From an uncultured Candidatus Saccharibacteria bacterium (GTDB lineage Bacteria > Patescibacteriota > WWE3 > UBA101185 > UBA10185), in NCBI GenBank assembly GCA_964574405.1, contig CAZNNN010000003.1, positions 11,035-54,680 on the forward strand: 43,646 bases of DNA, written 5' to 3'. The notes below the pieces were generated by a model. It saw only the letters and a program-made list of their open reading frames with translations, was not told the origin of the DNA and did no database searches. A program made the position numbers and the translations under genes. Below are positions 1,541-43,646 of the stretch, piece after piece. Every line of letters begins with the position of its first letter. Position 1 is the first letter of the stretch.

Positions 1541-2908
1541 ATGGTTTATGGTAATTATCAATTATCACTCCACAACCCCTGGTGGGAGGAGGGCTATAAT
1601 ATGGATGCAGACTCCAAGTTGATGGAGCTTTCGGGGTTAAAATATCGCTACATCCACCCTTTAATAAATGAATATCCAGTGGAAAAAGATGTGGTTTTTA
1701 CTTTGCGTGGTCCAAGAAGGGTAGGCAAAACTACGCTTATCAAGTTAATTATTAAAAAACTGGTCGACCAAAAAATTCCCAGAAAAAACCTTTTTTATCT
1801 CCCGTGCGATAGAATTGAGCATTTTAACGAGCTTTACAATGCAGTAAAGGATTATATAGACAGGCAAAGAGTTACCTCCAAAGGTAGAATATTCATCTTT
1901 TTAGATGAAGTGTCATATGTAAAAGAATGGCAAAGAGCCGTAAAGTCGTTATGGGATGACGATATTGTAAAAAACTGTACTTTGCTAACAACTGGGTCAA
2001 ACGCAGTGGATTTAAAAGTATCGTCCGAGAGATTACCCGGAAGAACCGGAAAATATTTTAACAGCGAAAAGCTATTTCTGCCGTTAGATTTCTTTGAATT
2101 TTATAAACTTTTAAATCCAGAATGGATAGGGAAGTTTGAGCTTAAAGATCTGCCAAAGTTTAAAAAATATTTGGAAGACTTTATGTTGGTGGGGGGTTTT
2201 CCGCAGGTGATAAATGAATACTATTCAAACGGCTTTATTGCGTTAGAAACTTACGAAACCTACACCAAGTGGGTTGATGATGACATCCATAAGAACGGTA
2301 AATCCGTGGAAAGTGCCTACCGACTTTTTAAGGAGTTGGATAAAACACTCACAAGTAGGGTAAGTTACACCAATTTAGCAAAGGATACTTTGTTTGCGTC
2401 GCAACAGAGTGCGCAGGACTATTTAGAGCTTTTTGATCTTATGTATCTATGTTTTAAGTGTAATTGCTTTCTTTTGGAGTCGCGAAAAATTGATCCCAAA
2501 AAGAACAAGAAATTCTATTTTGTAGACCCGTTTATCCATAATGCGCTTTTGGCTAAGCAGGACGGGTTTTTAGATGATGCTTTTAATTACTCACGGAAGC
2601 TGTTGGCAGGGGAGAATGTTGCCTCCACAAGGTTTGAGGAGGTGGTGGGAAGCTTGCTACAAAGGCGATTTACCCGGCTTGACTACGGGGTGCTGGCAGG
2701 AGATGCTTTGGAGGTTGACTTTGTGGGTTTTGACCACGGAAAGTACCAGCTTTTTGAATGTAAATACGGCAAAACGGGTTTGCACAATTATCTAAAATTC
2801 CAAAAACTTTTTGAATCATTTGGGGGTTTGGATATCCTAGTTCCTGGCGTAGCCAATGTGGAAGAACGCTCGTTCTTTACACTCGTAGGTAATAGTTTTA
2901 CGGCGTAA
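1541..2908 (+). CDS. AAA+ ATPase of the COG1373 type (AAA_14 plus DUF4143-like C-terminus)
   Basis: N-terminal NPWW motif, Walker A GPRRVGKTT, Walker B IFIFLDEV. Start moved from 1451 to ATG 1541 because 1451-1495 overlaps tRNA-Ala and TTGACA(1506)-17-TATCAC(1529)-6-ATG fits a promoter. Confidence 0.8.
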   Translation: MVYGNYQLSLHNPWWEEGYNMDADSKLMELSGLKYRYIHPLINEYPVEKDVVFTLRGPRRVGKTTLIKLIIKKLVDQKIPRKNLFYLPCDRIEHFNELYNAVKDYIDRQRVTSKGRIFIFLDEVSYVKEWQRAVKSLWDDDIVKNCTLLTTGSNAVDLKVSSERLPGRTGKYFNSEKLFLPLDFFEFYKLLNPEWIGKFELKDLPKFKKYLEDFMLVGGFPQVINEYYSNGFIALETYETYTKWVDDDIHKNGKSVESAYRLFKELDKTLTSRVSYTNLAKDTLFASQQSAQDYLELFDLMYLCFKCNCFLLESRKIDPKKNKKFYFVDPFIHNALLAKQDGFLDDAFNYSRKLLAGENVASTRFEEVVGSLLQRRFTRLDYGVLAGDALEVDFVGFDHGKYQLFECKYGKTGLHNYLKFQKLFESFGGLDILVPGVANVEERSFFTLVGNSFTA

Positions 2909-5114
2909 CAGGCGTTCCAGGCTTGGTTAACGGCTCTTGAACAACCGGAGCTTTTGGTGCGGTAGTTCCAGCCTTTTCAAGGGCTTCCACGCTTGGTTTA
3001 GCTTTTGCTTCCGCATCTGCCGTTTCAGCAATTAGTTTGTTAACCGCTTCTAGATCCAAAGCTACTTGTTTATAATCTGGACTATCTTTTTCCACCAAAC
3101 TTTGTGCCACTTCAAATTCAGCCTTTGCGTCGGTATAGGCTTTAAGTTTAAACAGGGAATAGGCTAGGTTATAGCGAGCATTAGCATAGTCGCTCTTAAG
3201 ATTAACCGCCTGCTTAAACAAATTACCAGCAGATAAGTAATCTTCCTTGGCAAAATAAATTCCGCCCAGCTCTACGCGTAAAACAGGGTTAGTTGGGTCA
3301 AGCTGAATGGCGGTGTTGTAAGCCTGAATAGCAAATTGATCTGCATCTTTGGCTGCTGGAATTAAGAATTTGTAAATTTGTGCTCTGGCTACCCAGTTTG
3401 CACTGTCAAGAGGATTTAGAGTTTCAGAAGCAAATTTAATGTTTCGTAACGCCTGTGCCAAAAGATTTTGAGCGGTGGTTTTTTCTTGGTCGCTCAAGTC
3501 CTGTTTGGAGCTTAAGGATTGTGCTAACGCCAAATTAGTGTCGGCATAAATCCTATGATACTCGCTCCTTTGCGCATTAATAGAAATGGCTTTTACTTGG
3601 TAGTCGTACGACTTGGAGACATCCTGCTTGGAGGCCGAGGTTATAGCTTTGCGCATGTAGTACTCTGGCGCGTACTGTAGGTAAGCTTGGTATATGCCAA
3701 ACCCTGCCAACGCCAAAATAGGAATAGATATGATATATTGTAACAATTCTTTTTTAGCTAAAATAGGACTTTCTATAATGCTGACGCCTTCGGAGTCGGT
3801 GCGTGATTCCAAAGAAAGTGTCCACAATTTAGCCCATGATTTGTTAGTATTTAACGCCGATTCTGCTGTTAAAAGTCCCATTAAAGTAAACATAAGAAAA
3901 GCCAGTTGAAAGCTGGTGTAGCCCAGCAGTAGGGCAGTAAGTGAGGCTATAAGCCCAGCAGAAAGCACCACAGAAAGTCCTTTATACGCGTCGTTAACCT
4001 TAATAGATTTAAATGCCAATCTAATAAGGGTAGAAATTAAGGCAAGATATGCCAAAAGTCCAAAAATACCCAGCGTAGAGATGATGTTAAAGACCTCATT
4101 GGCTGGTTTGTCAAAATTAACATTCCAAGTGGGGGTATAGTTTTGGCTAAGCGTTTTGTATCTAGGGTAATTTAGATGAAAAGTACCTACACCCGAACCA
4201 AAAATGGGGAAATCACGCAAAGTGGTGGACGACACAATCCACGATTCTTGTACGGAGGGCAGAACTTCTTTTGGGTAGGCTCTCTGCAGAACGAACCTTG
4301 TTTGTGGAACTATAAAAAACAACGCTATAAAGGTTACTAACGCTCCTACAGCAGGAAAGAGGTACATTTTACTTTTAGCCACGCTTTCACTGGGTGACTT
4401 TAACACCATAAGTCCTGCCAGCAGGGTAGCCCCTGCTGTAAAAGCTACACCGCCAAAAACCGCCAGAGCTACAAAGTCTAAAATAGAGATAGCTAAAGTT
4501 ACGCTTTTTTTAACGGGCGATTTCATGTTAATTGTTAACGAGGCGCTAACTATTAAACCCACCAGTAAGGATGTGGCAAGGCTAGTACTAGACCCGGCAA
4601 GAAGAAAACCCCTTTGATTAAACAGATGCAAAAAGGGGATGGTGAGCCCGTAGTAATTTACCAGGGAAAGTAAAGCTGGAACGGCTGTTCCTACTGAAAT
4701 GCCCCACAAAACTACTCTTATTTTTCTTGCCGAGTCTACATTGGTTGAGACCGCGTAATAGTAAAAGTAAAGGGCAACAAACCCAAATAGGCTAGGAAAC
4801 CAGCGTCCATAAGAGCCAAACAGGCTAGAAGTTTTATCTAGGGAGGTTACAGCGGAAAGGATAAAGCTTACTAACACAAGAAGTAACGCAAAATCCACTG
4901 GCGATTTAGTAAAGTAAACTTTCTTTTCGACTATCATTTTGGCGCACCAAAGTACTGCCATAGCTACTGTGGCTGCTACAAAAAAGTAAAGCTTGTTAAA
5001 TTCAAAGTACTCGTAGGTTATGGGTAAAAAGAATATTGGTGTTAAAAATGTTACCAACACAATTAGCCCAAATATTAAGTTGTTAAGTTTGTCCAGGACA
5101 GTATTTTTGTTCAT
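2898..5114 (-). CDS. Polytopic O-antigen ligase/polymerase-like (Wzy_C-type) membrane protein with C-terminal TPR repeats
   Basis: More than 10 hydrophobic helices in the N-terminal 480 aa. The C-terminal 250 aa carry TPR-like repeats (AIQAYNTAIQLDPTNP, NLFKQAVNLKSDYANARYNLAYSLFKLKAY). The 3' end overlaps the convergent ATPase gene by 11 nt. Confidence 0.7.
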   Translation of the reverse strand: MNKNTVLDKLNNLIFGLIVLVTFLTPIFFLPITYEYFEFNKLYFFVAATVAMAVLWCAKMIVEKKVYFTKSPVDFALLLVLVSFILSAVTSLDKTSSLFGSYGRWFPSLFGFVALYFYYYAVSTNVDSARKIRVVLWGISVGTAVPALLSLVNYYGLTIPFLHLFNQRGFLLAGSSTSLATSLLVGLIVSASLTINMKSPVKKSVTLAISILDFVALAVFGGVAFTAGATLLAGLMVLKSPSESVAKSKMYLFPAVGALVTFIALFFIVPQTRFVLQRAYPKEVLPSVQESWIVSSTTLRDFPIFGSGVGTFHLNYPRYKTLSQNYTPTWNVNFDKPANEVFNIISTLGIFGLLAYLALISTLIRLAFKSIKVNDAYKGLSVVLSAGLIASLTALLLGYTSFQLAFLMFTLMGLLTAESALNTNKSWAKLWTLSLESRTDSEGVSIIESPILAKKELLQYIISIPILALAGFGIYQAYLQYAPEYYMRKAITSASKQDVSKSYDYQVKAISINAQRSEYHRIYADTNLALAQSLSSKQDLSDQEKTTAQNLLAQALRNIKFASETLNPLDSANWVARAQIYKFLIPAAKDADQFAIQAYNTAIQLDPTNPVLRVELGGIYFAKEDYLSAGNLFKQAVNLKSDYANARYNLAYSLFKLKAYTDAKAEFEVAQSLVEKDSPDYKQVALDLEAVNKLIAETADAEAKAKPSVEALEKAGTTAPKAPVVQEPLTKPGTPVTP

Positions 5115-5206: not shown

Positions 5207-5872
5207 CTAATTAGAGATCCACCAGCTAAATTCTGCATCGTAAGAAGTTGGGGCGTCCAGTTCTAGATAAAAGCCTTCAAAAGGAACCTTAGAGGAAATC
5301 CAATATCTTACCGCGGGGGAATAGTTTTGATTAAAGGTAATGTTTATTCTGGAATTAAGTTTTACGCTTTCACTTTTAATATACACTCTGCTTTGATCCT
5401 TTGGCACATAGGTGGTACCACTATCGGTAAGGTATTTTTTATCTAGCTCCAAAGTCCTTTTAATTAAATCTGATTTTGACTTGCCAATAGGTAAAAAGCC
5501 CAAACCAGCAAAAACCGTGAGGCAAAAAAGAACAAAGAGGGTTATTTTTAGTATTTTAGGAGAGGGAGTTAAGATTCTTGCTACCTTTATAGCATTAGCT
5601 CCGGTGTTGGCAGAAAGCCCCCGTATTTTTTTGGCCACTGCCTCGTTACTTAAGCCCAAACCTTTAAGTTTTTCAATTTCTAAAAGGGTATCCATGGCGG
5701 AAGCAGGATAATGGCCTGTTACCTCACTGCCGTTAACTTTTCTTTGCATGTGAGGCAAAAGCCCTAGTTTGGTGTAGTATCTTAACCGATTATAGGGATC
5801 GCCCTTGCCAAAGTCTACCCCTTTTTTTACCGCCAGTTCAATAAATTTTTCTATCGAGAGTAATTCTTCCAT
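5207..5872 (-). CDS. Membrane-anchored MerR-like HTH protein (N-terminal HTH, one TM helix, about 90-aa extracytoplasmic domain)
   Basis: The N-terminus NRLRYYTKLGLLP resembles the MerR recognition-helix region. The hydrophobic helix is ITLFVLFCLTVFAGLGFLPI. TATAAT lies on the minus strand at 5887-5892. Confidence 0.55.
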   Translation of the reverse strand: MEELLSIEKFIELAVKKGVDFGKGDPYNRLRYYTKLGLLPHMQRKVNGSEVTGHYPASAMDTLLEIEKLKGLGLSNEAVAKKIRGLSANTGANAIKVARILTPSPKILKITLFVLFCLTVFAGLGFLPIGKSKSDLIKRTLELDKKYLTDSGTTYVPKDQSRVYIKSESVKLNSRINITFNQNYSPAVRYWISSKVPFEGFYLELDAPTSYDAEFSWWISN

Positions 5873-5939: not shown

Positions 5940-6881
5940 ATGGGCTACATTTTCACCATGTTTAAGGATGCACAAGTTAGGTCAATAGATCGCTCATCGG
6001 TACAGTACCCAAAGCTGTTAACGGAAATACCTGACGCACCAAAGACGCTGTATTATTTGGGCGACTTTAAAGAGTCGCTTTTTAAAAACACTTTAGCAGT
6101 GGTAGGGAGTCGTGCGGTTACCTTATACGGCGAATGGGTGGTAAATAACCTTGTTAAAGAGGTAGCCCGCCAGGGTATAACAATAGTATCGGGCTTTATG
6201 TATGGGGTGGATGCGCTGGCTCACAAAGCGGCTTTAGAGGTGGCAGGTTCAACTATTGCGGTTATGGCTGGAGGCGTAGATCAGATTTTTCCTAATTATC
6301 AGGAGCAACTTTATTGGGACATTGTAGCCAAGGGTTTAGTGGTTTCTGAATTTTACAAAGAACCTGAATTGGGAAATTGGATGTTTGCTAAGCGCAACCG
6401 TATTGTAGCGGGGCTTTCTCACGCTACTTTAGTAGTGGAAGCGGCGGAAAAAAGTGGCTCGCTCATTACCGCTTGTTACACTAAGGAGTACGGCAGACAA
6501 CTCTTAACAGTACCCGCTAATTTAAATTCCAAAAATGCTGTTGGTACCACACAACTGTATAGAGGTGGGGCAAAGATGGTTACCTGTGCGGACGATATTC
6601 TAGCATTATTTTCGTATAATTACCGCGTTAATATTTCTGATGCGGTAAATAGGCGGTTATTATTAGGAGAAGCCGATGGGGATGCTCGGCAAGACGAAAA
6701 CCCGCAGTATCAGGTTAACAGTCCAGAAAATATTTTAAATCTGCTTAAGTTGGAATCGCTAAGTGCGGACGAAATCACTTTAAAGTTAGGTATTTTGTCG
6801 TCAGATGTCCTTAAATATCTTACTGGATTAAGTTTGCAGGGGCAGGTGGGGGAGAAAGGCGGGCGGTATTATGCTTGTTAA
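5940..6881 (+). CDS. dprA: DNA processing protein DprA (Smf)
   Basis: Rossmann-like DprA motifs: VVGSRAVTLYG, GFMYGVDALAHKAAL, IAVMAGGVD, RNRIVAGLS, VVEAAEKSGSLITA. Possible alternative start at 5958. Confidence 0.9.
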   Translation: MGYIFTMFKDAQVRSIDRSSVQYPKLLTEIPDAPKTLYYLGDFKESLFKNTLAVVGSRAVTLYGEWVVNNLVKEVARQGITIVSGFMYGVDALAHKAALEVAGSTIAVMAGGVDQIFPNYQEQLYWDIVAKGLVVSEFYKEPELGNWMFAKRNRIVAGLSHATLVVEAAEKSGSLITACYTKEYGRQLLTVPANLNSKNAVGTTQLYRGGAKMVTCADDILALFSYNYRVNISDAVNRRLLLGEADGDARQDENPQYQVNSPENILNLLKLESLSADEITLKLGILSSDVLKYLTGLSLQGQVGEKGGRYYAC

Positions 6882-8400
6882 GGTTAAGTCAGCCTATTTT
6901 TTTGGGATTGAGACCTTTGATGTTGATGTGGAGGTAAATATTTTAGATCGCAGTATGCCTGGCTTTGAGATTGTGGGCTTAGCGGGTAGGGAAGTAGTAG
7001 AGAGTAGAGAAAGGGTAAAAAACGCCATTATTAACGCTTTTAATGAATTTCCACACGGAAAAAAGATTGTAATAAATTTGGCGCCTGCCGATGTGCCAAA
7101 AGAAGGAGCTTACTACGATTTACCCATTGCGGCATCAATTATTAGCTATATGAAAGAGTTCACCTTTCCAGCGGACAGTGCTTTTTTTGGCGAAGTCTCC
7201 ATGGACGGAAATGTTAGAAAAACCAAGGGGGTATTTTTGTTTGTTACTTTTGCAAAAGAGAATGGTCTAAATAATGTATTCATTCCAAGTTCTTGTTACG
7301 AGGAAGTGAGGGGTATTAAGGATGTAAATATTTATCCAATTTCTAATTTGCGCGATTTACTAAATTATAATACTATTCGCCACGACGATTATATTTGTAG
7401 CGGAGAAAAATCTGTTTCCCGTAATCAAGATGGTCGTAATGAAGTGGACTTTAGCGATGTGATTGGGCAAGATATGGCAAAGCGAGCTTTAGAGATTTCC
7501 GCTTGTGGCGGACATAATATCTTAATGACCGGTAGTCCCGGTAGTGGAAAGTCCATGCTAGCCAAGGCACTCTGTTATATTTTACCTAACCTAGGATCAC
7601 AAGAAGTTACCGAAGTTGCCAAGATTTATTCTGCGTGTGGGGTTTTTGATCCCAATATTTTTACGCACAAGTTTAGACCTTATAGAAATCCACATCACAC
7701 CATAAGTTATTCCGGAATGGTGGGCGGGGGACTCATTCCTCGTCCAGGGGAGATAAGTCTTGCTCACAAGGGTGTGTTGTTTTTGGACGAGTTTTCTGAA
7801 TTCCCCTCTTCAATAATTGAGTGTTTGCGTCAACCCATGGAAGATGGCTCTATCACCATAGCTCGCAGTAGGGGAAGCGTTAAACTTCCGTGTGATTTTA
7901 CACTAGTGGCGTGTTCCAACCCCTGCCCGTGCGGTTTTGCTGGCGAGAGAAAAACGGCGTGTACCTGCAAACCTCCGGATATAGCCAGATATAAAAAGAA
8001 ACTTTCAGGTCCAATTTTAGATAGGATAGATCTTTTTGTGCGGGTTTGGAATCCAAGTTTAGATAAAATTATTGGCGCAGAGGCTTTTCTCAAGTCGCAA
8101 GAAAAGGTGTCCCCCAAGATAAAAGAGCGGGTAGAAGCTGTGCGACGCATTCAGGAACAAAGGTTTAAGGACGATGGGATAACTGTAAACGCCAGAATGC
8201 CCAATACTTTAGTAAAAAAATACTGTCAATTAAATTCGTTGTGCGGAGATTTGCTAGATAAATCAGTGCAAAAATATAACTTATCGCCTAGAAGTGTATA
8301 CAAAGTTATTAAGGTAGCCAGAACTATTGCGGATATGGAAGGCGTTCCTACAATAACCGTATCCCATCTAGCGGAGTCGATTCAATATAAAAATATATGA
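6871..8400 (+). CDS. comM: ComM/YifB family Mg-chelatase-like AAA+ ATPase (competence helicase family)
   Basis: N-terminal Lon-protease-like domain, Walker A GSPGSGKSMLAKAL, Walker B VLFLDEFSEF, Cys cluster CSNPCPCG, C-terminal Mg_chelatase_C-like region. Overlaps the dprA stop. Confidence 0.9.
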   Translation: MLVKVKSAYFFGIETFDVDVEVNILDRSMPGFEIVGLAGREVVESRERVKNAIINAFNEFPHGKKIVINLAPADVPKEGAYYDLPIAASIISYMKEFTFPADSAFFGEVSMDGNVRKTKGVFLFVTFAKENGLNNVFIPSSCYEEVRGIKDVNIYPISNLRDLLNYNTIRHDDYICSGEKSVSRNQDGRNEVDFSDVIGQDMAKRALEISACGGHNILMTGSPGSGKSMLAKALCYILPNLGSQEVTEVAKIYSACGVFDPNIFTHKFRPYRNPHHTISYSGMVGGGLIPRPGEISLAHKGVLFLDEFSEFPSSIIECLRQPMEDGSITIARSRGSVKLPCDFTLVACSNPCPCGFAGERKTACTCKPPDIARYKKKLSGPILDRIDLFVRVWNPSLDKIIGAEAFLKSQEKVSPKIKERVEAVRRIQEQRFKDDGITVNARMPNTLVKKYCQLNSLCGDLLDKSVQKYNLSPRSVYKVIKVARTIADMEGVPTITVSHLAESIQYKNI

Positions 8401-11735: not shown

Positions 11736-12491
11736 ATGTTTGAAGACCAGTCGTCAAAAATTTATGAAACTTTGGTAGACAAAGTAAACAACCTTTTTGT
11801 TAAAAAGCCTTTAGTTTCAACGGTTGCTATAAGTGTTGTAGTAAGTTTGGCGGTTTTGTTTATATCTATGGATTATAGAAAAGGGGAGGCTAAGGTGGAG
11901 ATTTCGCAAGATAATTTGGTTGCAACGGTTGCAGAGTTAGGTAGTATAGAAATAAAGGTAGACTTATCCGGGGCGGTAAAAAAGCCCGGGGTGTATACGG
12001 TGGATGCAAAAGCTCGCTTGATTGATTTACTAGTCTTGGGTGGGGGATTTGTAAGCGATGTAAGCTCTTTGTGGGTAAGTAAAAATCTTAATTTGTCGCA
12101 AAGTTTAGCGGACGGAGAAAAGATTTATATCCCGTTTGAGTGGGATATAGATGGGGTTGGTGAGGGTGAGGCGGACTTAAAACCCCTAAGTTTAGGAATT
12201 GTTAAGGACACTAAGCAGGAAGATCTGGTGGCAGGGGCGCTCAAGATTATGGGAGTGAGTAATGTGCCCGTGGAGTCTTCTAGTTCCGCTGTTTCTTCTA
12301 TTTCCACGCAAAATAAGATCAACGCTAATACTGCGCCAACATCAGATTTAGACCTATTGCCAGGCATCGGTCCAGCCTATGCGGGAAGAATTGTAGAGAA
12401 TCGCCCGTACGCGTCGTTTGAAGAGTTTAAAACAAAAAGTGGGTTATCAGCTAATCTAGCTGATAGTCTCAAAGATCTGTTGTCCTTTTAG
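11736..12491 (+). CDS. comEA: ComEA-family DNA receptor (TM anchor, SLBB-like domain, C-terminal helix-hairpin-helix)
   Basis: N-terminal TM (VAISVVVSLAVLFI), KKPGVYTV SLBB-like motif, HhH LLPGIGPAYAGRIVENRPYASFEEF. Confidence 0.8.
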   Translation: MFEDQSSKIYETLVDKVNNLFVKKPLVSTVAISVVVSLAVLFISMDYRKGEAKVEISQDNLVATVAELGSIEIKVDLSGAVKKPGVYTVDAKARLIDLLVLGGGFVSDVSSLWVSKNLNLSQSLADGEKIYIPFEWDIDGVGEGEADLKPLSLGIVKDTKQEDLVAGALKIMGVSNVPVESSSSAVSSISTQNKINANTAPTSDLDLLPGIGPAYAGRIVENRPYASFEEFKTKSGLSANLADSLKDLLSF

Positions 12492-12497
12492 AGTGTT

Positions 12498-13565
12498 ATG
12501 AAAACCAAGGTGTTTATTTTGGCCACTTTGCTGGCGTTTTGGCGAGTTGGGGAGTTTGTTGCTTGGCAGAGTAAAACATTTATTAACAAGTTTAGTAATG
12601 ACATGGAATACACTTACCAAGCGCCTGTGGATGAATGTGCATCTGGGCAGGGGATATATTGTGGGTTTAAAGTGGCGTCGGGTAGGTTTAGGGCAAAAGC
12701 ATCAGATAAAATACAGCAAGTTTTACCTAGTCCGCACAGCGAACTTGTGATGGGGATGGTTTTGGGAGAAAATCGGTTTAAACAAGTTCCCACATATAAC
12801 GACATCCTCAAGACCGTGGGGCTGGTGCATGTGGTGGTGGTTTCCGGTTACAATATTAGCTTGGTGTTTACTTTATTAATGCGCTTGTTAGGTTCGCAAT
12901 ACAAAGTTAAAAACTTAATTATCGGTTTGTTTTGCACTTTTATATATTCGGGAATTTCGGGATTTGGCGTGCCCGCAGTTAGAGCCTGGATCATGGGCTC
13001 CATCGCGGTAATCTTTAAATTTTATGGTCGACCTGTCCAAGGCATAAAGGTTCTTATAGTTTCTGCCATAGTCATACTATGTACAGCCCCCAGCCAGCTG
13101 TTTTCAGTGAGTTTTTTGTTAAGTTTCTTGGCAACCTTGGGCGTAATGGTTGTTCCTGAAGCCTTAAAGGGTATATGGGGTTTGTTGGGTATTAAGAGCA
13201 GGGCAGGACTTTTTGAGGATTTTAACACCAGTTTAAGCGCGCAGTTAATGGTAAATCCAGTTATTTCGTATTATTTTGGTACTATGAGCGTGGTGTCCTT
13301 GATAGTAAACCCGCTAGTTTTGTGGGTAGTGCCTTTGTGTACAGTTTTAGGTGGGGTTTTGGTGTTTACGGCTTTTGCAAGTCCCCTGTTAGCTAAAATA
13401 ATAGCTTTGGTGCTGTATCCCTTTTTGGACTTTTTTGTAATCTTTTCGGAATTTTTTTCTGGCTTTAAAACGGCGTCACTGCAGATTAGATTTAGTTTTT
13501 ACGGTATAGTGGCTTATTATATTTTGTTGCTCCTTGGGATAAAATTATTTAGGAGAAAGCCGTGA
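12498..13565 (+). CDS. comEC: ComEC/Rec2 membrane channel (Competence domain) without its own beta-lactamase domain
   Basis: Polytopic membrane protein with motifs typical of the ComEC competence domain (GLVHVVVVSGYNISL, GFGVPAVRAWIMG). Confidence 0.8.
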   Translation: MKTKVFILATLLAFWRVGEFVAWQSKTFINKFSNDMEYTYQAPVDECASGQGIYCGFKVASGRFRAKASDKIQQVLPSPHSELVMGMVLGENRFKQVPTYNDILKTVGLVHVVVVSGYNISLVFTLLMRLLGSQYKVKNLIIGLFCTFIYSGISGFGVPAVRAWIMGSIAVIFKFYGRPVQGIKVLIVSAIVILCTAPSQLFSVSFLLSFLATLGVMVVPEALKGIWGLLGIKSRAGLFEDFNTSLSAQLMVNPVISYYFGTMSVVSLIVNPLVLWVVPLCTVLGGVLVFTAFASPLLAKIIALVLYPFLDFFVIFSEFFSGFKTASLQIRFSFYGIVAYYILLLLGIKLFRRKP

Positions 13566-14314
13566 AGCTTTTTCCCTACGCTGTTTTTATAGTAGGCTAC
13601 TACCTAATACGGATGTTGGTTCTACTGCCTCAAGACAGCAAGTTTTACATATCTTTTTTGGATATCGGGCAGGGGGATAGTTTTGTCATAAATATTCCTA
13701 ATTATGGGAGGGTTCTGGTGGATACCGGACCCGATTATCAGTCAAATTATCTAACTGCTAGAAGTTCGGTTTTGCCAATTTGTAATATAAAAGCGGTATT
13801 TATTACACATTATGACAGCGATCACGCGGGTGGTTTGGGGAGAATTAGCAGATTTTGTCCCAGTATAACTATTTACGACGATTTAAAGTTAGGAGATACG
13901 CTGGGTTTTGGTAGTACAAAAATGTATGTTTTAAGTCCCCCAGATAGAAACCCACTCCGGGATATAAACGATAACTCCCTTGTAATGCTGGTAAAATATC
14001 ACGATTTTGAGGCGTTACTTACTGGGGATGCTGGTTTAAGCATGCTTGAATCGGTAGGTAATATTGTTAACATCTACAAAAATAAAGAGATAATTACAGG
14101 CGGTCTTGATGTCTATAAAGTGGCACATCACGGGTCCAAGTATAACAGTAGTAAAAACTTGATTGAGGCGTTAAATCCTGCGCATTGCATAATTTCTGTG
14201 GGTAAAAATAATTACGGGCATCCCAGTAAAGAAGTTGTTCAATATTTGGTTGATGCGGGGTGTAAGGTGCAAAGAACCGATCAGGACGGCACAATTACTT
14301 TCATTGGCAGATAG
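13562..14314 (+). CDS. Metallo-beta-lactamase fold protein, equivalent to the ComEC C-terminal domain, encoded as a separate ORF
   Basis: N-terminal TM, then LDIGQGDS, THYDSDHAGG, TGDAG, VAHHGS, GHPS motifs. The GTG start overlaps the stop of the previous ORF (GTGA). Confidence 0.8.
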   Translation: MKLFPYAVFIVGYYLIRMLVLLPQDSKFYISFLDIGQGDSFVINIPNYGRVLVDTGPDYQSNYLTARSSVLPICNIKAVFITHYDSDHAGGLGRISRFCPSITIYDDLKLGDTLGFGSTKMYVLSPPDRNPLRDINDNSLVMLVKYHDFEALLTGDAGLSMLESVGNIVNIYKNKEIITGGLDVYKVAHHGSKYNSSKNLIEALNPAHCIISVGKNNYGHPSKEVVQYLVDAGCKVQRTDQDGTITFIGR

Positions 14315-21292: not shown

Positions 21293-21886
21293 TTAAGCTT
21301 CAAGTTCAAAAGGTTTTTTGTGTTTTTCTAACATCTGCCTTATAAAGTCCAAATGATCTTCCGCCTTCATGGTTTTGGCAAAAAATTCTTTTACCACATC
21401 CTCAATTACCGCTAGAGATTTTGTGTCAATTTCTTTCAGTCGACTTTTTTTATACGACTCCAGTTCTGCTGCCACTTTTAAATACTCACCAGCGATTTTG
21501 TCTCGCAATTCTTGTTCCGTTTGCAAGGCATCCTTGTGCAGTTCCACTTTAAAATCTTCCGCCCCTTTTAGTACATCGTCTTTAAATTCCGTGGTGGCGC
21601 TTTTTAGCTGTTCTTGCACAAAGTCCTTTGACTCGTCAACCGCTAAATCCGTTTCCTTAATCATTCTTTTAGCGCGTTCGTTGGATTCTTTAATAATATT
21701 TAGCGACTTATTTTTTGCCTCCTCTAAAATTACTAGCGCCTTTTTATAGGCTTGATCGCGGGAGTCTTCTTCAGCACGCTTTTTTTTGTCGTACATGGAT
21801 GCCAAAGCTATAAGCAAAAAGCCAAAGAAAGCAAAAATCATCAGTAAAATTAAGAGTAGGGCAATGATGGGCAGGTTAGAGTTCAT
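21293..21886 (-). CDS. Single-pass membrane protein with long charged coiled coil; ATP synthase subunit b-like architecture
   Basis: N-terminal TM (PIIALLLILLMIFAFFGFLLIAL) followed by about 160 aa of K/E-rich helix. It lies immediately downstream of the c-like gene, the same order as atpE-atpF. The call rests on architecture, not proven homology. Confidence 0.45.
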   Translation of the reverse strand: MNSNLPIIALLLILLMIFAFFGFLLIALASMYDKKKRAEEDSRDQAYKKALVILEEAKNKSLNIIKESNERAKRMIKETDLAVDESKDFVQEQLKSATTEFKDDVLKGAEDFKVELHKDALQTEQELRDKIAGEYLKVAAELESYKKSRLKEIDTKSLAVIEDVVKEFFAKTMKAEDHLDFIRQMLEKHKKPFELEA

Positions 21887-25809: not shown

Positions 25810-26682
25810 ATGCAAGACTTAACTTTTAATGAAAAACTATACACCTCCACGGAAGTCGCTCAGATCCTTGGAGTTAGTTTAAGAAGTATTTACAGGTATT
25901 TAGACGAAAACAAAATACAAGCCGCAGTAAAAACTGCCACGGGAAGACACAGATTTACTAAAGAAAACATTAATGATTTTCTACACCCTTCAGTTCAAAG
26001 AACAAGCCAACCAAATCAAGAAAGCCGAAGTGTAAAAGTTAAAGACTTTGTAGAAGAATCTCGAGAGGAGGTTTATAACCCACCATATCCTGAAAAAAAT
26101 ATACAAGATGTGCAAAAAGATATTAAAGTTGATGAAACTGTAAAAGATGAACCGATTGATTGGTTAGCTAGGTTTAGACAGGCGGCAGAAAAGTACAAAA
26201 CTGAGGAGCCAAAAGTTCAGGAGGTACCTGTTGTAGATGTTCAGCCTGCCATGCAAGTTTGGGAAGAGCCTAAAGTAACCGCTAAGATCGAAGAAGATAT
26301 AGAGGAATCAGAATTTAATTACTATAGAAGCGGTGTGGGTGGATTAAAGGAGATTGCACAATCTCTCGATAAGTCTGCCAAGAATGCCTCCCTTGATTAT
26401 GCTTTTACCATGCAGGCAGGGCTTTCGTTGCACAAACCAATTAAGCCCTTCTCACTAATCCATGCCTATATTAAGGTGAGCGACAAGTCATACTTTGAAA
26501 AAGTTTTGCAACTTACACCGTCCACCAAAGATAATGCTCAATTATGTTTAATAGCGTCAAACGAGGTTAAATTATATAAAGATAGAAATGAAATGCACGG
26601 ACTTCAGGTGGTTTCTGATCAGCAGTTAAAGCTGGATCTTTTAAACGAAGGCGAGACCGAGCTTGCCAATGAGCTTGAATAA
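25810..26682 (+). CDS. Excisionase/MerR-superfamily HTH protein with acidic linker and uncharacterised C-terminal domain
   Basis: N-terminus YTSTEVAQILGVSLRSIYRYLDENKIQA..TATGRHRFTKENINDFL (HTH_17-like). The rest has no motif I recognise. Confidence 0.6.
   Translation: MQDLTFNEKLYTSTEVAQILGVSLRSIYRYLDENKIQAAVKTATGRHRFTKENINDFLHPSVQRTSQPNQESRSVKVKDFVEESREEVYNPPYPEKNIQDVQKDIKVDETVKDEPIDWLARFRQAAEKYKTEEPKVQEVPVVDVQPAMQVWEEPKVTAKIEEDIEESEFNYYRSGVGGLKEIAQSLDKSAKNASLDYAFTMQAGLSLHKPIKPFSLIHAYIKVSDKSYFEKVLQLTPSTKDNAQLCLIASNEVKLYKDRNEMHGLQVVSDQQLKLDLLNEGETELANELE

Positions 26683-37112: not shown

Positions 37113-37116
<4 letters not shown>
36505..37116 (+). CDS. rplA: 50S ribosomal protein L1
   Basis: [43 protein letters not shown]. 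Rather short at 203 aa. Confidence 0.92.
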
Positions 37117-39555
<2,439 letters not shown>

Positions 39556-39558
39556 AAG

Positions 39559-41049
39559 TTAGATAAACTCCGTATGTCTTGCGCTTACTACGCCTAGTAG
39601 TCCGTTAAAATCGGTGGACGACTCTATTATGGTATCTACACGCTTTTTGTAATCAGCGTTGGTGTTATAACTCCCCACGATTTTGCTAATTTGTTTGCCA
39701 ATGCCCTGCGGATCCTGTTCCTTAAAGACCTGACTCCAGATTAAGGTAAAGATAAATATCTGGAGATTGGTGTTTAAAACTTCTCCAGAGGCTTGATTAA
39801 AGAAACCATTGATAATTTTTTCACCCATAAGCAGAGTAGATTTAATACCCTCACTTATTTCTGCGCCAAAGTGCACAAAGTTTTGGGTTTTTTCCAGTAA
39901 GGATAGAAAATTTGATAGCTCTCTGCCTACCGACCACTTTAATTTTGTTTGTGTTTGTCTGCCTACTCGGGTAACGGATAGAAAGTAATTAACTGCAGGT
40001 CTTCTACCTTGCAGAAATAGGTCTTTATCAAAGAAAATGTGTCCGTCAGTAATTGACATCAAATTAGTTTGAATGTAACCCGTAATATCGCCCTCCACAG
40101 TTTCTGCTATGGGTAAACAGGTAAGGGCATGGATGCCTTTGTTAGTCTTAAAGTAGCCAGACCTTTCCAATAACCGCGAATGAGCGTAAAAGATGTCTGC
40201 CGGATAGGAAGCACGACCTGGGAAGCGTTTAGCTATGAGGGACATTTCTCGGTAATATTTGGCGTGATCTGTCATATCGTCCAGAATAAGCAAAACATCG
40301 TTGCCCGTTTCCATAAAGTACTCGGATATAGTCATGGCGGAATAGGGAGTTAGATAGACAATAGCGGAGGGATCGGAGGAATAAGAAGCCACAATAACAC
40401 ATTTATCCTTAATTTTGTTAGTGGCAATAAACTTTTCTATTTTTTTAATGTCCAAAGCGTTTTTACCTATCCCGGCGTAAACGCAAAGTGTTCCTTGTTT
40501 GGCTTGATTTAACATAGTTTGTAGGATAAAGTCGGTTTTTCCAGTTTTTCTATCGCCTATCACTAACTCCCGTTGCCCCTTACCCAGGGGAACTAACATG
40601 TCAACCACTGACACGCCGGTTTCAAGGTACTGATTGATTTTAACCCTTTTTTCGATGCCTGCCGGTTTTGGATCAATTGGTAAGTACCTTTCTGGTACAA
40701 ACTCCTCAAGCTCCTTATACATGTTCTGGCCTAGCGGATCTACGGTGTGTCCAAGAAGATAGATTCCTACACCAACTTCTAGTTGGCAGTTGGTTTTGCA
40801 AACCCTTTCACCAATGCTGGGTGGGTTGTGTGACAGCAAAACAATATCCACAGTATTTTCATCCATAGACATAGTTTGTCCGATAACGCCACTTTCAAAT
40901 AAAATAACTTCTCTAGGTTTAACCGTAGGGAGTCCGCGCACCTTGGTGATAGGATAATTTAGGCTTTCCACATAGCCAACTTCATTAGTTTGATCCAAAA
41001 ATCGGGTAAAATCTTCTTGCGTGTAGTTTTTATAGCCGTACTTAAGCAT
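39559..41049 (-). CDS. atpA: F1 ATP synthase alpha subunit
   Basis: GDRKTGKT P-loop, LLILDDMTDHAKYYREMSL, PGRASYPADIFYAHSRLLER. Confidence 0.93.
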   Translation of the reverse strand: MLKYGYKNYTQEDFTRFLDQTNEVGYVESLNYPITKVRGLPTVKPREVILFESGVIGQTMSMDENTVDIVLLSHNPPSIGERVCKTNCQLEVGVGIYLLGHTVDPLGQNMYKELEEFVPERYLPIDPKPAGIEKRVKINQYLETGVSVVDMLVPLGKGQRELVIGDRKTGKTDFILQTMLNQAKQGTLCVYAGIGKNALDIKKIEKFIATNKIKDKCVIVASYSSDPSAIVYLTPYSAMTISEYFMETGNDVLLILDDMTDHAKYYREMSLIAKRFPGRASYPADIFYAHSRLLERSGYFKTNKGIHALTCLPIAETVEGDITGYIQTNLMSITDGHIFFDKDLFLQGRRPAVNYFLSVTRVGRQTQTKLKWSVGRELSNFLSLLEKTQNFVHFGAEISEGIKSTLLMGEKIINGFFNQASGEVLNTNLQIFIFTLIWSQVFKEQDPQGIGKQISKIVGSYNTNADYKKRVDTIIESSTDFNGLLGVVSARHTEFI

Positions 41050-41497
41050 AAATCTTTTCCTTAATAATTTTATCTAGTGACAAGTTTAGAAAGTGCCCTG
41101 CGTGCGATATTAATAGCCCGCCCACGATTTCCGTGGAAGGACTACATTTTGTTAGTAACCCCGTTCCAATGTTCTCCGTAGTCCACATCTCTAGTTGGCG
41201 GTTTATTGTATCGGCAATTACTGCACCTGGAACAGCAAAAGCTATTTCTTCCAGCGACTTTAAAGAAACCAGCAATGCTTCCAAACCTTTTTGTTCAAGC
41301 TTTTTACTCGTTTCTGGAAAGCATTCCAGCAGTATTTTAGACAAGAATGGGTAATTATTTTGTATATCTTGAGTAGACGGGGAACTGATTTTAGAGAGAT
41401 CGGTTAGTAAACTGTGTACCTGGTTCATTAGGAGTACCTTATTATCCGTTGTTTTAACAAGTTCCGCCAGTTTGTGGGCAACATTTTCCGTGGGCAT
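41042..41497 (-). CDS. atpH: F1 ATP synthase delta (OSCP) subunit, short (151 aa)
   Basis: Position upstream of atpA with overlap. OSCP-like C-terminus EIVGGLLISHAGHFLNLSLDKII. TATAGT (41504-41509, minus strand) sits 6 nt before the ATG. Confidence 0.7.
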   Translation of the reverse strand: MPTENVAHKLAELVKTTDNKVLLMNQVHSLLTDLSKISSPSTQDIQNNYPFLSKILLECFPETSKKLEQKGLEALLVSLKSLEEIAFAVPGAVIADTINRQLEMWTTENIGTGLLTKCSPSTEIVGGLLISHAGHFLNLSLDKIIKEKIYA

Positions 41498-41539
41498 ATA
41501 TTGACTATATAACGCCTAAAAAATAAATACAAGTACCTC

Positions 41540-41568
41540 TTGACATACATCCCTAATTTGTTTACTAT
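41540..41568 (+). promoter_or_regulatory. Candidate promoter TTGACA-17-TACTAT for the large surface-protein gene
   Basis: TTGACA 41540-41545, TACTAT 41563-41568, ATG at 41629. Confidence 0.45.
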
Positions 41569-41628
41569 AAATAAAGTTTGTCAAAAGCTTTTACTGCAAA
41601 CATTGAAAGCCTTTGATTAACCTGCCTT

Positions 41629-43646
41629 ATGAGTACAAATACTGCCCAAAAATTTGCCTTTCAGAACAACTCTAAACTTGGCGCATCTGAGGCTTCTTTA
41701 TACCTAAAAATCACTCCCTCTACCTTAAGACGACTCGAGAATGATGGAAAAATTGTTTCAGAACGACTCTCTAACGGGTACAGACAATATTCTTTTGGCG
41801 ACATTGTCTCGTTAAAAAAGATCTTAGAGGAGCGTGCCAAATCATTTCGACACACGAAGAGACTTGTGGTTGAGGAGACTAAATTCGTGGACAAGAAAGC
41901 AAAGTATCCGCAGTTTAGTAATTTAGCAATATCTCAAGGTTTCTCTGTTTTACAAATCAAATCATTAAAAAGGTTGTCGTACGCTGGTTTAGTAGCTTGT
42001 CTTATTTTATTACTGGGTGTAGGCTTTAGGTTTTTTACCCTCAACGAAAACCGTACCCCCGCCAACGGTGGAATTGGTTCTTTTGTTGCTGGTTTATTCC
42101 GTCATAATGATTCTCGACAAGCTGGACTAGTAGCCGGTGCCGAGCTAGCAAGTGTTTTGGGTGAGCAATCCAGGTCAAAAAATTACGAATTTCATGTAAA
42201 TATCCCTTCCGTTTTTAACGAGCCTTCAAATTTTAAAAAAGGCTTAACTACCACCACCGCCACAGTGGGGCAGGTGGTTGGTTTATCAGTAATTGACGGT
42301 ATTACCGAAACCACCCTTGAAAAATACTTGGATGTTACCGGGGATGTTGTTTCTCCTGCAATTGGTGGTTTAAACAGTCTAGTTGTAAATAAGATAAAGG
42401 GTATATCCTTTGGCGAGATCGAGCCGGAGTCAGGCTCGGTGCTTATGGGAGATGGCGATGCTTGGCAGAGTTTGTCAACAGAAGAAATTACAGCTCTTGG
42501 CGTAATATCCACCGGAACTTGGGAAGCCGACCCCATTGAGCCAGGATTTTTAACGGGGGTTTGGCTTACCAACGGTGTTACATATACATTTCCTACCGCC
42601 CAAGCTACAGCAGTACGCCAGACACTTGTAAATGACGGGAGTGGAACTTTGGCGTGGACAGATTTGGGTGAAGTTAATGTGGCGGATGATGCGTTAGATT
42701 TTGTTGACTTTATGGATGCCATGACCCTTGATGCCTCCACGGATATTGCCACCGCCGGCTACAACCTTACTATCTCCGGTTCTGGTAGGTTTGGCATAAA
42801 TGGTCTCTTATATTCATGGCCTGCTTCTCATACAACATCTGGGGTTTTGCAAAACAACGGGAGTGGGACTTTGTCGTGGGTAGCCATAGGGGCCGATTCT
42901 CTGCTGGATAACAGTATTGATTGGATCAAGCTAAAAAACAGTATGACTTTGGATGCCACCACTACAATCGATATGGCTACAAATTCAGCAGATTTTGGTT
43001 TTGGGGATGGGGTTTTATATATAAAAAATACTGGCAATGTCGGTATCGGGACGACCAACCCAAGTACAGCTCTGGATGTTGTGGGAGATATTACAAGCAC
43101 GGGAGATTTATCAGTTAATGGCGGTGATTTAAACACTTCGGCAAGTACCTTTAATGCGGTGGCAACCGCTGATACCGTAAATCTGGCAGGGGGTACTGCG
43201 TCAACAGGCTGTACTATAGACGGCACTGCGGGAAATCTTACATGTACAGGTAATATTGGCGGGGGAGCTAGCGGTTCGGTAGGTTTTTGGAAAAGAGCGG
43301 GAACTTTAGTAACCACAGCGTATTCGGGCGACACTGTGTCAATAGATAATTATTTGGGTATAGGCACCACAAATCCTACCAAGGCCTTGAGTGTAGTTGG
43401 CGATGTAGGTATAACGGGTACAGTAACGGGTGGTTTGGCAGTTACAGGCGGGTTAACCGTAGATACCGTAAACGGCAATACCATTACTGCCTCAAGTGGT
43501 ATTCTAACAGTGGGTGCGGGAAAAACCTTAACGGCAAATGATAACGCTACTTTTAACACTGCCTCCATGCAATTTGGCAACACCAAATCACTAACACTTA
43601 ATGATAGTTTAATAGTTGGCACTAACTCTCTTACCTTTGCTGGAAC
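41629..43646 (+). CDS. Large open-ended CDS (at least 672 codons, runs off the window): MerR-type HTH, one TM helix, Gly/Thr/Asn-rich fibre-like repeat ectodomain
   Basis: Hand translation in frame 1 from ATG 41629 meets no stop up to 43646. N-terminus LGASEASLYLKITPSTLRRLENDGKIVSERLSNGYRQYSFGDIVSLKKI. TM LSYAGLVACLILLLGVGFRFF. Repeats include GNVGIGTTNPSTALDVVGDITSTG and NYLGIGTTNPTKALSVVGDVGITG. Absent from the ORF track because it has no stop; the minus-strand ORFs listed here are its antisense shadows. Confidence 0.8.
   Translation, partial: MSTNTAQKFAFQNNSKLGASEASLYLKITPSTLRRLENDGKIVSERLSNGYRQYSFGDIVSLKKILEERAKSFRHTKRLVVEETKFVDKKAKYPQFSNLAISQGFSVLQIKSLKRLSYAGLVACLILLLGVGFRFFTLNENRTPANGGIGSFVAGLFRHNDSRQAGLVAGAELASVLGEQSRSKNYEFHVNIPSVFNEPSNFKKGLTTTTATVGQVVGLSVIDGITETTLEKYLDVTGDVVSPAIGGLNSLVVNKIKGISFGEIEPESGSVLMGDGDAWQSLSTEEITALGVISTGTWEADPIEPGFLTGVWLTNGVTYTFPTAQATAVRQTLVNDGSGTLAWTDLGEVNVADDALDFVDFMDAMTLDASTDIATAGYNLTISGSGRFGINGLLYSWPASHTTSGVLQNNGSGTLSWVAIGADSLLDNSIDWIKLKNSMTLDATTTIDMATNSADFGFGDGVLYIKNTGNVGIGTTNPSTALDVVGDITSTGDLSVNGGDLNTSASTFNAVATADTVNLAGGTASTGCTIDGTAGNLTCTGNIGGGASGSVGFWKRAGTLVTTAYSGDTVSIDNYLGIGTTNPTKALSVVGDVGITGTVTGGLAVTGGLTVDTVNGNTITASSGILTVGAGKTLTANDNATFNTASMQFGNTKSLTLNDSLIVGTNSLTFAG

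Follow-up and report, generated by a model that had tools for sequence, protein, structure and literature searches.

Gene content at the distal end of the window

The window analysed here is a stretch of 43,646 nucleotides from contig CAZNNN010000003.1 of an uncultured Candidatus Saccharibacteria bacterium, one of the ultra-small Patescibacteria and related to WWE3, and its right-hand end holds the 5' part of a giant gene on the plus strand, hereafter called the fibre gene. The encoded protein is very probably a membrane-rooted type-II giant, with a MerR-type helix-turn-helix (HTH) in the cytoplasm, one transmembrane (TM) helix and a fibre on the outside. The parts of the gene, in window coordinates, are as follows.

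41629-43646, plus strand: the 5'-most 672 codons of the giant HTH-TM-fibre gene, truncated by the window edge (open-frame translation and homologues)
41671-41826, plus strand: predicted cytoplasmic MerR-type winged HTH, residues 15-66 (Pfam, AlphaFold2, Foldseek, conservation)
41827-41973, plus strand: Lys/Arg-rich cytoplasmic linker, residues 67-115, poorly conserved (11% median identity; helix 56-84, then a low-confidence stretch)
41974-42042, plus strand: predicted single TM helix or signal anchor with the N-terminus inside, residues 116-138 (hydropathy, model, charge bias)
42154-42528, plus strand: membrane-proximal ectodomain module, residues about 176-300 (VLG..YEFHVNIP...TETTLE..LDVTGDV...), the second-best conserved region (35%)
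42529-43644, plus strand: first part of the repeat shaft, residues 301-672 (units GIGTTNP..ALxVVGD, (Y)TFP..Q.LxNDGSGTLxW and LDFxxFxDAMTLDAST)

Translation from the ATG at 41629 gave no stop in 672 codons up to the window edge, as a preliminary description of this DNA had stated, and the calculated probability of such a run by chance is about 1e-19 (at about 40% GC, with stops making up about 6.3% of random triplets). The list of open reading frames (ORFs) leaves out frames that run past the window end, which is why the fibre frame is absent from it. The four ORFs listed on the opposite strand (41661-41894, 42192-42752, 42828-43334 and 43350-43622) are antisense shadows, as proposed earlier, to judge from the homologues of the sense frame (E = 1e-137).

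The extent of the gene beyond the window could be followed on contig PEYU01000022.1 (L008), which is 100% identical to window positions 38253-43646, i.e. over 5,394 nt. This contig carries the fibre ORF (protein P0011) to at least 1,967 codons and ends without a stop having been reached, in line with the earlier use of the word giant. P0011 is colinear with a relative of 3,642 amino acids (aa), P0015, residues 119-486 corresponding to 4-361 and residues 1792-1950 to 1557-1715, and this colinearity suggests that the full-length window protein probably exceeds 3,500 aa. Another relative, P0012, whose gene has neighbours as in the window, is complete at 3,434 aa. P0001, which is the closest relative, is a complete protein of just 565 aa, so the shaft varies greatly in length. 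A stop or frameshift separating the HTH from the repeats was found neither in the window nor in more than 30 divergent relatives. Repeats break assemblies, the contigs of several relatives end within the fibre gene, and most database copies are fragments.

A minimal MerR-type HTH at the N-terminus

Residues 15-65 or so had been matched by eye to the MerR/excisionase HTH pattern, an assignment on which Pfam, a family profile and AlphaFold2 combined with Foldseek now agree. Taken alone, the Pfam scores of the window protein are marginal (MerR, PF00376, 28.9 bits at a cut-off of 28.2; MerR_1, PF13411, 23.4 bits at a cut-off of 21.6; both over residues 20-66); its relatives score from 30.6 to 47.7 bits. 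A single-sequence search of the 672 residues against solved structures gave a chance match only, and a profile built from 31 family members and compared with the PDB returned BrlR (E = 7e-7), BldC (1e-6), CueR (7e-5) and RacA (7e-4). AlphaFold2 modelled residues 15-75 or thereabouts with a predicted local distance difference test (pLDDT) score of about 95, as a strand (16-18), the helix-turn-helix (19-26 and 30-38), a beta-hairpin wing (44-46 and 52-55) and a following helix (56-84). All top Foldseek matches of this model were MerR-like HTHs, BldC (6AMA and 6AMK; root-mean-square deviation (rmsd) 1.2-1.3 A) ranking first, followed by RacA (5I44; about 2 A), GlnR/TnrA and Xis (Pukovnik Xis, 4J2N; 1.1 A). 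The N-terminus thus passes both profile and fold searches for an HTH.

The HTH is also the most conserved region of the protein, with a median identity of 46%, compared with 35% for the membrane-proximal module, 22% for the TM helix and 11% for the linker. Across the 31 family members, conservation is 90% or higher at four arginines located in the recognition helix and wing (R34, R35, R46 and R52), and the corresponding positions in MerR-like proteins touch DNA. In RacA, the arginine equivalent to Arg30 of BldC contacts bases (PMC5859096). In our view the HTH probably binds DNA, because in a protein that evolves fast nothing is better conserved than the residues that contact DNA. Pfam and NCBIfam identified no effector domain in the window protein, in which the wing is followed only by helix 56-84, the low-confidence linker and the TM helix. 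As modelled, the HTH is a minimal MerR-type domain of the BldC, RacA and Xis kind and not of the build of classical MerR activators.

Membrane anchor and ectodomain

The sole hydrophobic stretch of the window protein covers residues 116-138 approximately (Kyte-Doolittle 2.2) and was modelled as part of a helix spanning residues 107-136 (pLDDT 87-90), which agrees with the TM helix previously placed at about 115-136. Lys and Arg are more abundant on the N-terminal side of this helix in 22 of the 31 family members and less abundant in three, and the window protein has no signal peptide. The single TM helix and the charge bias together predict that the HTH lies in the cytoplasm and the remainder of the protein outside.

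In the membrane-proximal module, V176, L177, N191, T208, E231, L234, G238 and D239 are at least 90% conserved; an AlphaFold2 monomer model of residues 140-345 was of low confidence and was left uninterpreted. The ectodomain is rich in Thr (14%), Gly (14%) and Asn (7%), and the units noted earlier were located at residues 335 (NDGSGTLAW), 409 (NNGSGTLSW), 471 (VGIGTTNP) and 576 (LGIGTTNP), so that both the composition and the repeat types first described hold. A self-BLAST of the 1,967-aa protein returned no rows, and the internal repeats are therefore documented by motif positions only. P0004, a fibre protein that lacks an HTH and has a Peptidase_S74 C-terminus, contains the same shaft units.

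The likeness to phage tail fibres, also claimed in the preliminary description, stood in part. It is backed by the Peptidase_S74 domains of relatives and by a C-terminal domain, shared within the family, that models onto the C-termini of tailspikes. It is not backed by sequence similarity to phage proteins, since neither Pfam, NCBIfam nor PHROGs gave a match in the ectodomain (0 PHROGs families), and a tblastn search of 50,697 phage genome records with the 1,967 aa gave none either, which weighs against the resemblance. Pfam placed no Peptidase_S74 in the first 672 residues, MerR is the only precomputed Pfam hit of the 1,967-aa fragment, and the C-terminus lies beyond both contigs. The ectodomain is probably a long fibre outside the cell, built like a phage tail fibre and presumably trimeric, and its role is likely to be contact with other cells.

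A family of HTH-TM-fibre proteins

A profile of the N-terminal 340 residues, searched against 1.84 billion representative proteins, yielded 747 matches at E <= 1e-3, of which 126 were at E <= 1e-10. Complete members are 1,330-7,185 aa long, and in the complete genome of WWE3 RAAC2 the homologous frame is open for at least 3,725 codons. The fusion of HTH and fibre, whose retention by orthologues had been left to be checked, is kept in over 30 divergent proteins; these come from many samples, and the complete genome CP006914.1 is among their sources. The shared order is one or more HTHs, a variable basic linker, one TM helix, a conserved module (..F.VNVP...TETTLE..LD..GDV) and repeats of the GIGTT.P type. 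Several members add Peptidase_S74, segments resembling YadA heads, FG-GAP or Laminin_G, a coiled coil, and a C-terminal module ending in F(D/N)WWI. Peptidase_S74 is on record in P0019, P0036 and P0062, and an S74-like motif was read in the sequence of P0015, the relative colinear with the window protein. The HTH is usually present in one copy; P0027 and P0089 carry two each, P0109 carries three and P0023 eight.

The arrangement varies in the multi-HTH members: the eight HTHs of P0023 are followed by hydrophobic segments, and the three of P0109 by a TM helix and a fibre. P0066 has about 14 MerR HTHs without a TM helix. In P0007 (600 aa), the fibre repeat gives way abruptly after 'GALHVVGQ' to 'CVAEGTKIRRKRKG...EILSLNDKSGEWEWHKV', a segment that looks like the start of a Hint/intein-type domain. 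At NCBI, one member of the family goes by the name 'MerR family DNA-binding transcriptional regulator' and a second by 'tail fiber domain-containing protein [Candidatus Nomurabacteria]'. After or near the giant HTH-fibre genes there are often additional very large genes (>1,478 to 2,437 aa; L009 17910-22343, the P0019 contig, L011 17775-19574 and L013 1-3944), several of which have Laminin_G_3, Toxin_R_bind_N or Peptidase_S74 matches and no HTH; together they may form surface-protein islands.

A shaft-less paralogue in the same window

A second HTH-TM protein is encoded elsewhere in the window.

5207-5872, minus strand: 221-aa shaft-less paralogue with MerR HTH, one TM helix and the family's C-terminal beta-sandwich (Pfam, profile, model)

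The recurrence of the HTH-TM layout at this position had been pointed out before, and the link proved stronger than first thought, as the C-terminal domain is also shared with the giants. The protein has a MerR_1 match (25.4 bits) and a TM helix at about residues 105-130, and its residues 151-219 match a C-terminal profile of ten giants (20.5 bits, E = 1e-8). Its model has a mean pLDDT of 84.5, rising above 93 in the beta-sandwich, for which Foldseek returned the C-terminal domain of the Pam1 tailspike (7EEA; rmsd 2.2 A, probability 1.00) as well as a Klebsiella phage depolymerase, a K1 capsule lyase and the R2 pyocin fibre, 9K4A and 6CT8 being among the matched entries. Because it has this C-terminal domain in common with full-length giants, the protein is a paralogue that retains the two ends of the giants minus the shaft. 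Its 303 homologues are of uniform length, and some lie on contigs that also carry giants.

At every locus examined (window 2898-5114, minus strand; L013-L016), a TPR protein of about 740-770 aa is encoded directly downstream on the same strand, and the two genes likely form a conserved two-gene unit. In the window and in WWE3 this pair is divergent from dprA-comM.

Divergent pairing with the F-type ATPase genes

Upstream of the fibre gene, on the opposite strand, lies a cluster of F-type ATPase (atp) genes, and the region between the two contains the following elements.

37113-41497, minus strand: divergent F-type ATPase genes (Pfam for one gene, the rest by synteny)
37113-37352, minus strand: ATPase epsilon (synteny with L008 and L001)
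37349-38752, minus strand: ATPase beta (synteny with L008 and L001)
38740-39555, minus strand: ATPase gamma (synteny with L008 and L001)
39559-41049, minus strand: ATPase alpha (Pfam ATP-synt_ab)
41042-41497, minus strand: ATPase delta-like, 151 aa (synteny with L008 and L001)
41540-41568, plus strand: sigma-70-type promoter of the fibre gene, TTGACA, 17-nt spacer, TACTAT (10 of 12 consensus positions)
41576-41621, plus strand: 5' leader hairpin (about 17 pairs) that stops about 8 nt short of the start codon (RNA fold -14 kcal/mol, z = -2.4)

The start codons of the fibre gene and the atp delta-like gene are 131 bp apart (41498-41628). The divergent arrangement was present in 10 of 11 informative loci, namely the window, L001, L009, four WWE3 species, L010, L011 (Nomurabacteria) and the contig of the 7,185-aa P0019. 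The one departure is the paralogue P0061, whose gene lies divergent to a glycogen cluster and has a further MerR giant after it. In the window lineage (window, L001 and L009), the cluster consists of epsilon, beta, gamma, alpha and delta-like genes with no a, b or c (Fo) genes adjoining, and the Fo genes may be elsewhere or lost; WWE3, L010, L011 and the P0019 contig have two or three extra genes upstream of delta.

The -35 hexamer of the fibre promoter is at position 41540, the coordinate at which the preliminary description began. Both hexamers and the 17-nt spacer length are kept in the L001, L009 and WWE3 loci, while the sequence of the spacer is not conserved in the window lineage. An alternative reading with the 19-20-nt spacer of classical MerR promoters was rejected, as it is the 17-nt reading that every lineage keeps. 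On the atp side, TATAGT lies 6 nt upstream of the delta-like ATG (window 41498-41515, minus strand) and is conserved in the window, L001 and L009, which suggests a leaderless atp mRNA. With this atp-side promoter read by eye, the two promoters face away from each other, with their -35 boxes about 8 bp apart.

Palindromes in the leader of the fibre gene were considered as an operator and dropped, given that their arms pair with each other as an RNA hairpin. The inverted repeats are interpreted as RNA structure because the arms vary between lineages while the recognition helix is conserved. The hairpin persists in L001 and L009, where the changes are, as we read them, compatible with the structure; at the corresponding place WWE3 and L011 form hairpins from unrelated sequences. 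The hairpin could possibly act as a 5' stabiliser of a very long mRNA. The sole inverted repeat present in the DNA around the promoter (TTGACA...TGTCAA) is weakly conserved and was likewise set aside. The fibre gene starts without a Shine-Dalgarno sequence; CCTGCC(TT)ATG is found instead and is conserved in the window lineage and WWE3.

Possible functions of the DNA-binding tail

The reading that we prefer, with a probability of roughly 0.35-0.4, is that the protein is a membrane-tethered local regulator, i.e. a transmembrane transcription regulator (TTR) with an unusual ectodomain. Through a DNA-bound HTH, the base of the fibre would be physically joined to the chromosome, and the most likely target would be the 131-bp region shared with the divergent ATPase operon. 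The protein could act on its own locus for as long as co-translational export of the giant chain keeps that locus at the membrane. This reading is preferred because the pairing with atp is conserved, because divergent pairs that include a DNA-binding protein are typically regulator and target, and because TTRs are an established class. As to the second point, Korbel et al. in 2004 reportedly found that conserved divergent pairs with one DNA-binding partner are usually regulator-target pairs. Regulators combining an HTH with a TM helix are known and widespread (PMC10269533).

Several observations weigh against local regulation. The HTH comes without the coiled-coil dimeriser and the effector domain that give MerR proteins their switch, and the spacer of the fibre promoter has the ordinary 17 nt and not the over-long 19-20 of classical MerR promoters. 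No shared operator was found, the k-mers common to nine intergenic regions being promoter hexamers and A/T-rich words only. A sensor of 2,000-7,000 residues would be very costly, and there is no evident route by which a distal contact signal could pass through a single helix. HTH copy numbers of 1, 2, 3 or 8 suit avidity or architecture better than a specific switch, and the close folds include RacA and Xis, which are architectural DNA binders with MerR-like HTHs (PMC5859096). Small genomes conserve gene order generally, and the synteny with atp may by itself reflect descent; the paralogue P0061, moreover, is not beside atp. A more elaborate version of local regulation, in which attachment of, or tension on, the mature trimer shifts HTH occupancy at the shared promoter, the nascent HTH having bound its own locus in cis, is improbable in our estimate. 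If true, it would mean that expression of the ATP synthase, and hence the energy state of the symbiont, is set by attachment to a host.

An architectural tether comparable to RacA is somewhat unlikely in absolute terms, though nearly as likely as local regulation. Here the HTH would bind DNA with little or no sequence preference and regulate no gene, either pinning the base of the fibre to the nucleoid, as an anchor under load, or pinning the chromosome to the envelope of a tiny cell. Both Foldseek and the profile group the HTH with RacA (5I44), BldC and Xis, the tandem HTH arrays in front of the TM helix (eight in P0023, three in P0109, two each in P0027 and P0089) suggest avidity, and the HTH model contains no effector or dimerisation module. 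The failure to find a conserved operator fits as well, as does the retention of the HTH-TM base on the shaft-less paralogue, which recalls the constant N-terminal attachment domain of phage fibres. Such a tether leaves the conserved divergent pairing with atp unexplained. Pull-out would be blocked by any folded cytoplasmic domain, yet it is the DNA-contact arginines that are conserved, an observation that fits DNA binding in general and does not separate a tether from a regulator.

The HTH could alternatively be a protein-binding module that docks the fibre to a part of the cytoskeletal, division, secretion or pilus machinery and so fixes its position. The precedent is RodZ, which has a cytoplasmic HTH binding MreB, a single TM helix and a small periplasmic domain, and thus shares with the fibre protein the layout of cytoplasmic HTH, single membrane pass and extracytoplasmic domain; the HTH of RodZ is of the Xre type and not of the MerR type. 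The failure to find an operator counts in favour of such a dock, and at 21293-21886 the window codes for a DivIVA-like membrane protein (weak Pfam match). The fibre gene has no conserved candidate partner alongside it, its neighbours being atp and ribosomal protein genes, and the residues conserved in the family are those that contact DNA in MerR, BldC and RacA (PMC5859096). On balance, we consider a RodZ-like role a poor prospect.

The idea of an artefact (HTH and fibre genes misjoined) or a mobile element (a prophage tail fibre or the target of a diversity-generating retroelement, DGR), which draws on the breakage of assemblies at repeats, the contigs ending inside the gene and the NCBI name 'tail fiber domain-containing protein' of one relative, is largely refuted by the identity of two independent assemblies over 5,394 nt, by the fusion in more than 30 divergent proteins including that of CP006914.1, by annotated neighbours that are all housekeeping genes, by the lack of PHROGs and phage tblastn matches, and by the finding of neither a reverse transcriptase among the annotated ORFs nor a template/variable repeat pair.

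Relation to known systems

In its layout the protein resembles the TTRs ToxR, TcpP and CadC, which likewise have a cytoplasmic DNA-binding domain, a single membrane pass and an outside domain; single-pass TTRs were the commonest in a census of the class (PMC10269533). CadC-type TTRs act on adjacent genes, and the fibre gene adjoins the atp operon. The difference lies in the parts, as ToxR, TcpP and CadC combine an OmpR-type domain with a compact sensor, whereas the present family combines a minimal MerR-type HTH in variable copy number with a repeat fibre of 1,300-7,000 aa. The best structural match of the HTH is BldC from Streptomyces (6AMA and 6AMK; target TM-score 0.78-0.83, 26-27% identity), which is also MerR-like without a coiled-coil dimeriser or effector domain. 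BldC forms head-to-tail multimers on direct repeats (PMC5859096), a mode of binding that would suit a trimer or tandem HTHs by analogy. BldC is, however, a free cytoplasmic protein of 68 residues, while the fibre HTH is the tail of a membrane protein for which no direct-repeat site was identified.

RacA from B. subtilis (5I41 and 5I44) likewise has an N-terminal MerR-like HTH in a protein that links DNA to the envelope. RacA reaches the membrane only by way of a coiled coil and DivIVA and lacks an outside part, whereas the fibre protein has a covalent TM helix and a giant ectodomain. Classical MerR activators (MerR, CueR, SoxR and BmrR) have a dimerisation coiled coil, an effector domain and a 19-20-bp spacer, none of which is found in the window protein or its own promoter. 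With phage tail fibres and tailspikes (Pam1, 7EEA), relatives in the family have the S74 chaperone and the distal beta-sandwich in common. Cellular proteins named 'tail fiber domain-containing' also contain repeat units of the family. Phage fibres begin with a virion-attachment domain, in place of which the family has an HTH and a TM helix, encoded by a chromosomal gene among housekeeping genes, and they show no detectable sequence similarity to the window protein. Giant surface proteins are known from Vampirococcus lugosii, an ultra-small Candidate Phyla Radiation (CPR) episymbiont; these are 1,392-4,163 aa long, predicted to be membrane-localised and proposed to form a fibrous surface for host recognition (PMC8080830). 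They are built from WD40, PKD, integrin and fibronectin domains, and neither 'MerR' nor 'helix-turn-helix' occurs in PMC8080830.

The ingredients (HTH-TM regulators, minimal MerR-like binders, S74 fibres and CPR giants) are thus known, and for their combination no published description was found; the literature search, which did not cover subscription journals, returned none of the fusion, its pairing with atp or the shaft-less paralogue. Patescibacteria (CPR) account for much of bacterial diversity and live mostly attached to other cells, and little is known of how they recognise hosts or how attachment acts back on their physiology. The family provides concrete candidates for contact fibres whose built-in tail is predicted to bind DNA and whose genomic partner, the ATP synthase operon, is fixed, which makes a link between attachment and gene expression or chromosome organisation testable. 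It also exposes a problem of annotation, in that proteins of 3,000-7,000 aa are automatically named 'MerR family transcriptional regulator' or 'tail fiber domain-containing protein', and ORF lists that omit edge-truncated frames hide giant fibre genes.

Other features of the window

The gene content of the window is of the housekeeping kind (Obg, LeuRS, ArgRS, competence, sortase, glycogen and ribosomal proteins, and secE-nusG-rplK-rplA), with five tRNA genes and nothing phage-like among the annotated genes. A reverse transcriptase or DGR template repeat had been suggested as something to look for nearby. The 30 annotated ORFs of the window include no reverse transcriptase, no template/variable repeat pair in the window involves 41629-43646, and L008 is without tandem DNA repeats; the fibre gene was accordingly dropped as a candidate DGR target.

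A third protein with a MerR/HTH_17 match (25810-26682, plus strand; 290 aa, no TM helix) heads a glycogen cluster (GT5, two GH57, GT5 and GalT), and the same arrangement is found in L010 (21409-22344). In L012, a giant MerR-fibre paralogue sits divergent from that same glycogen cluster. Competence and DNA-uptake genes (dprA, comM, comEA and comEC) occupy 5940-8400 and 11736-14314 on the plus strand, the metallo-beta-lactamase part of comEC being a separate overlapping ORF (13562-14314). Positions 1-106 of the window are a perfect 53-nt tandem duplication that ends 1 nt inside the Obg ORF (105-1355) and may be either an artefact of the assembly end or a real repeat. The tRNA-Ala gene at 1420-1495 overlaps the listed start of an AAA_14/DUF4143 ATPase ORF (1451-2908), the true start of which is probably further downstream.

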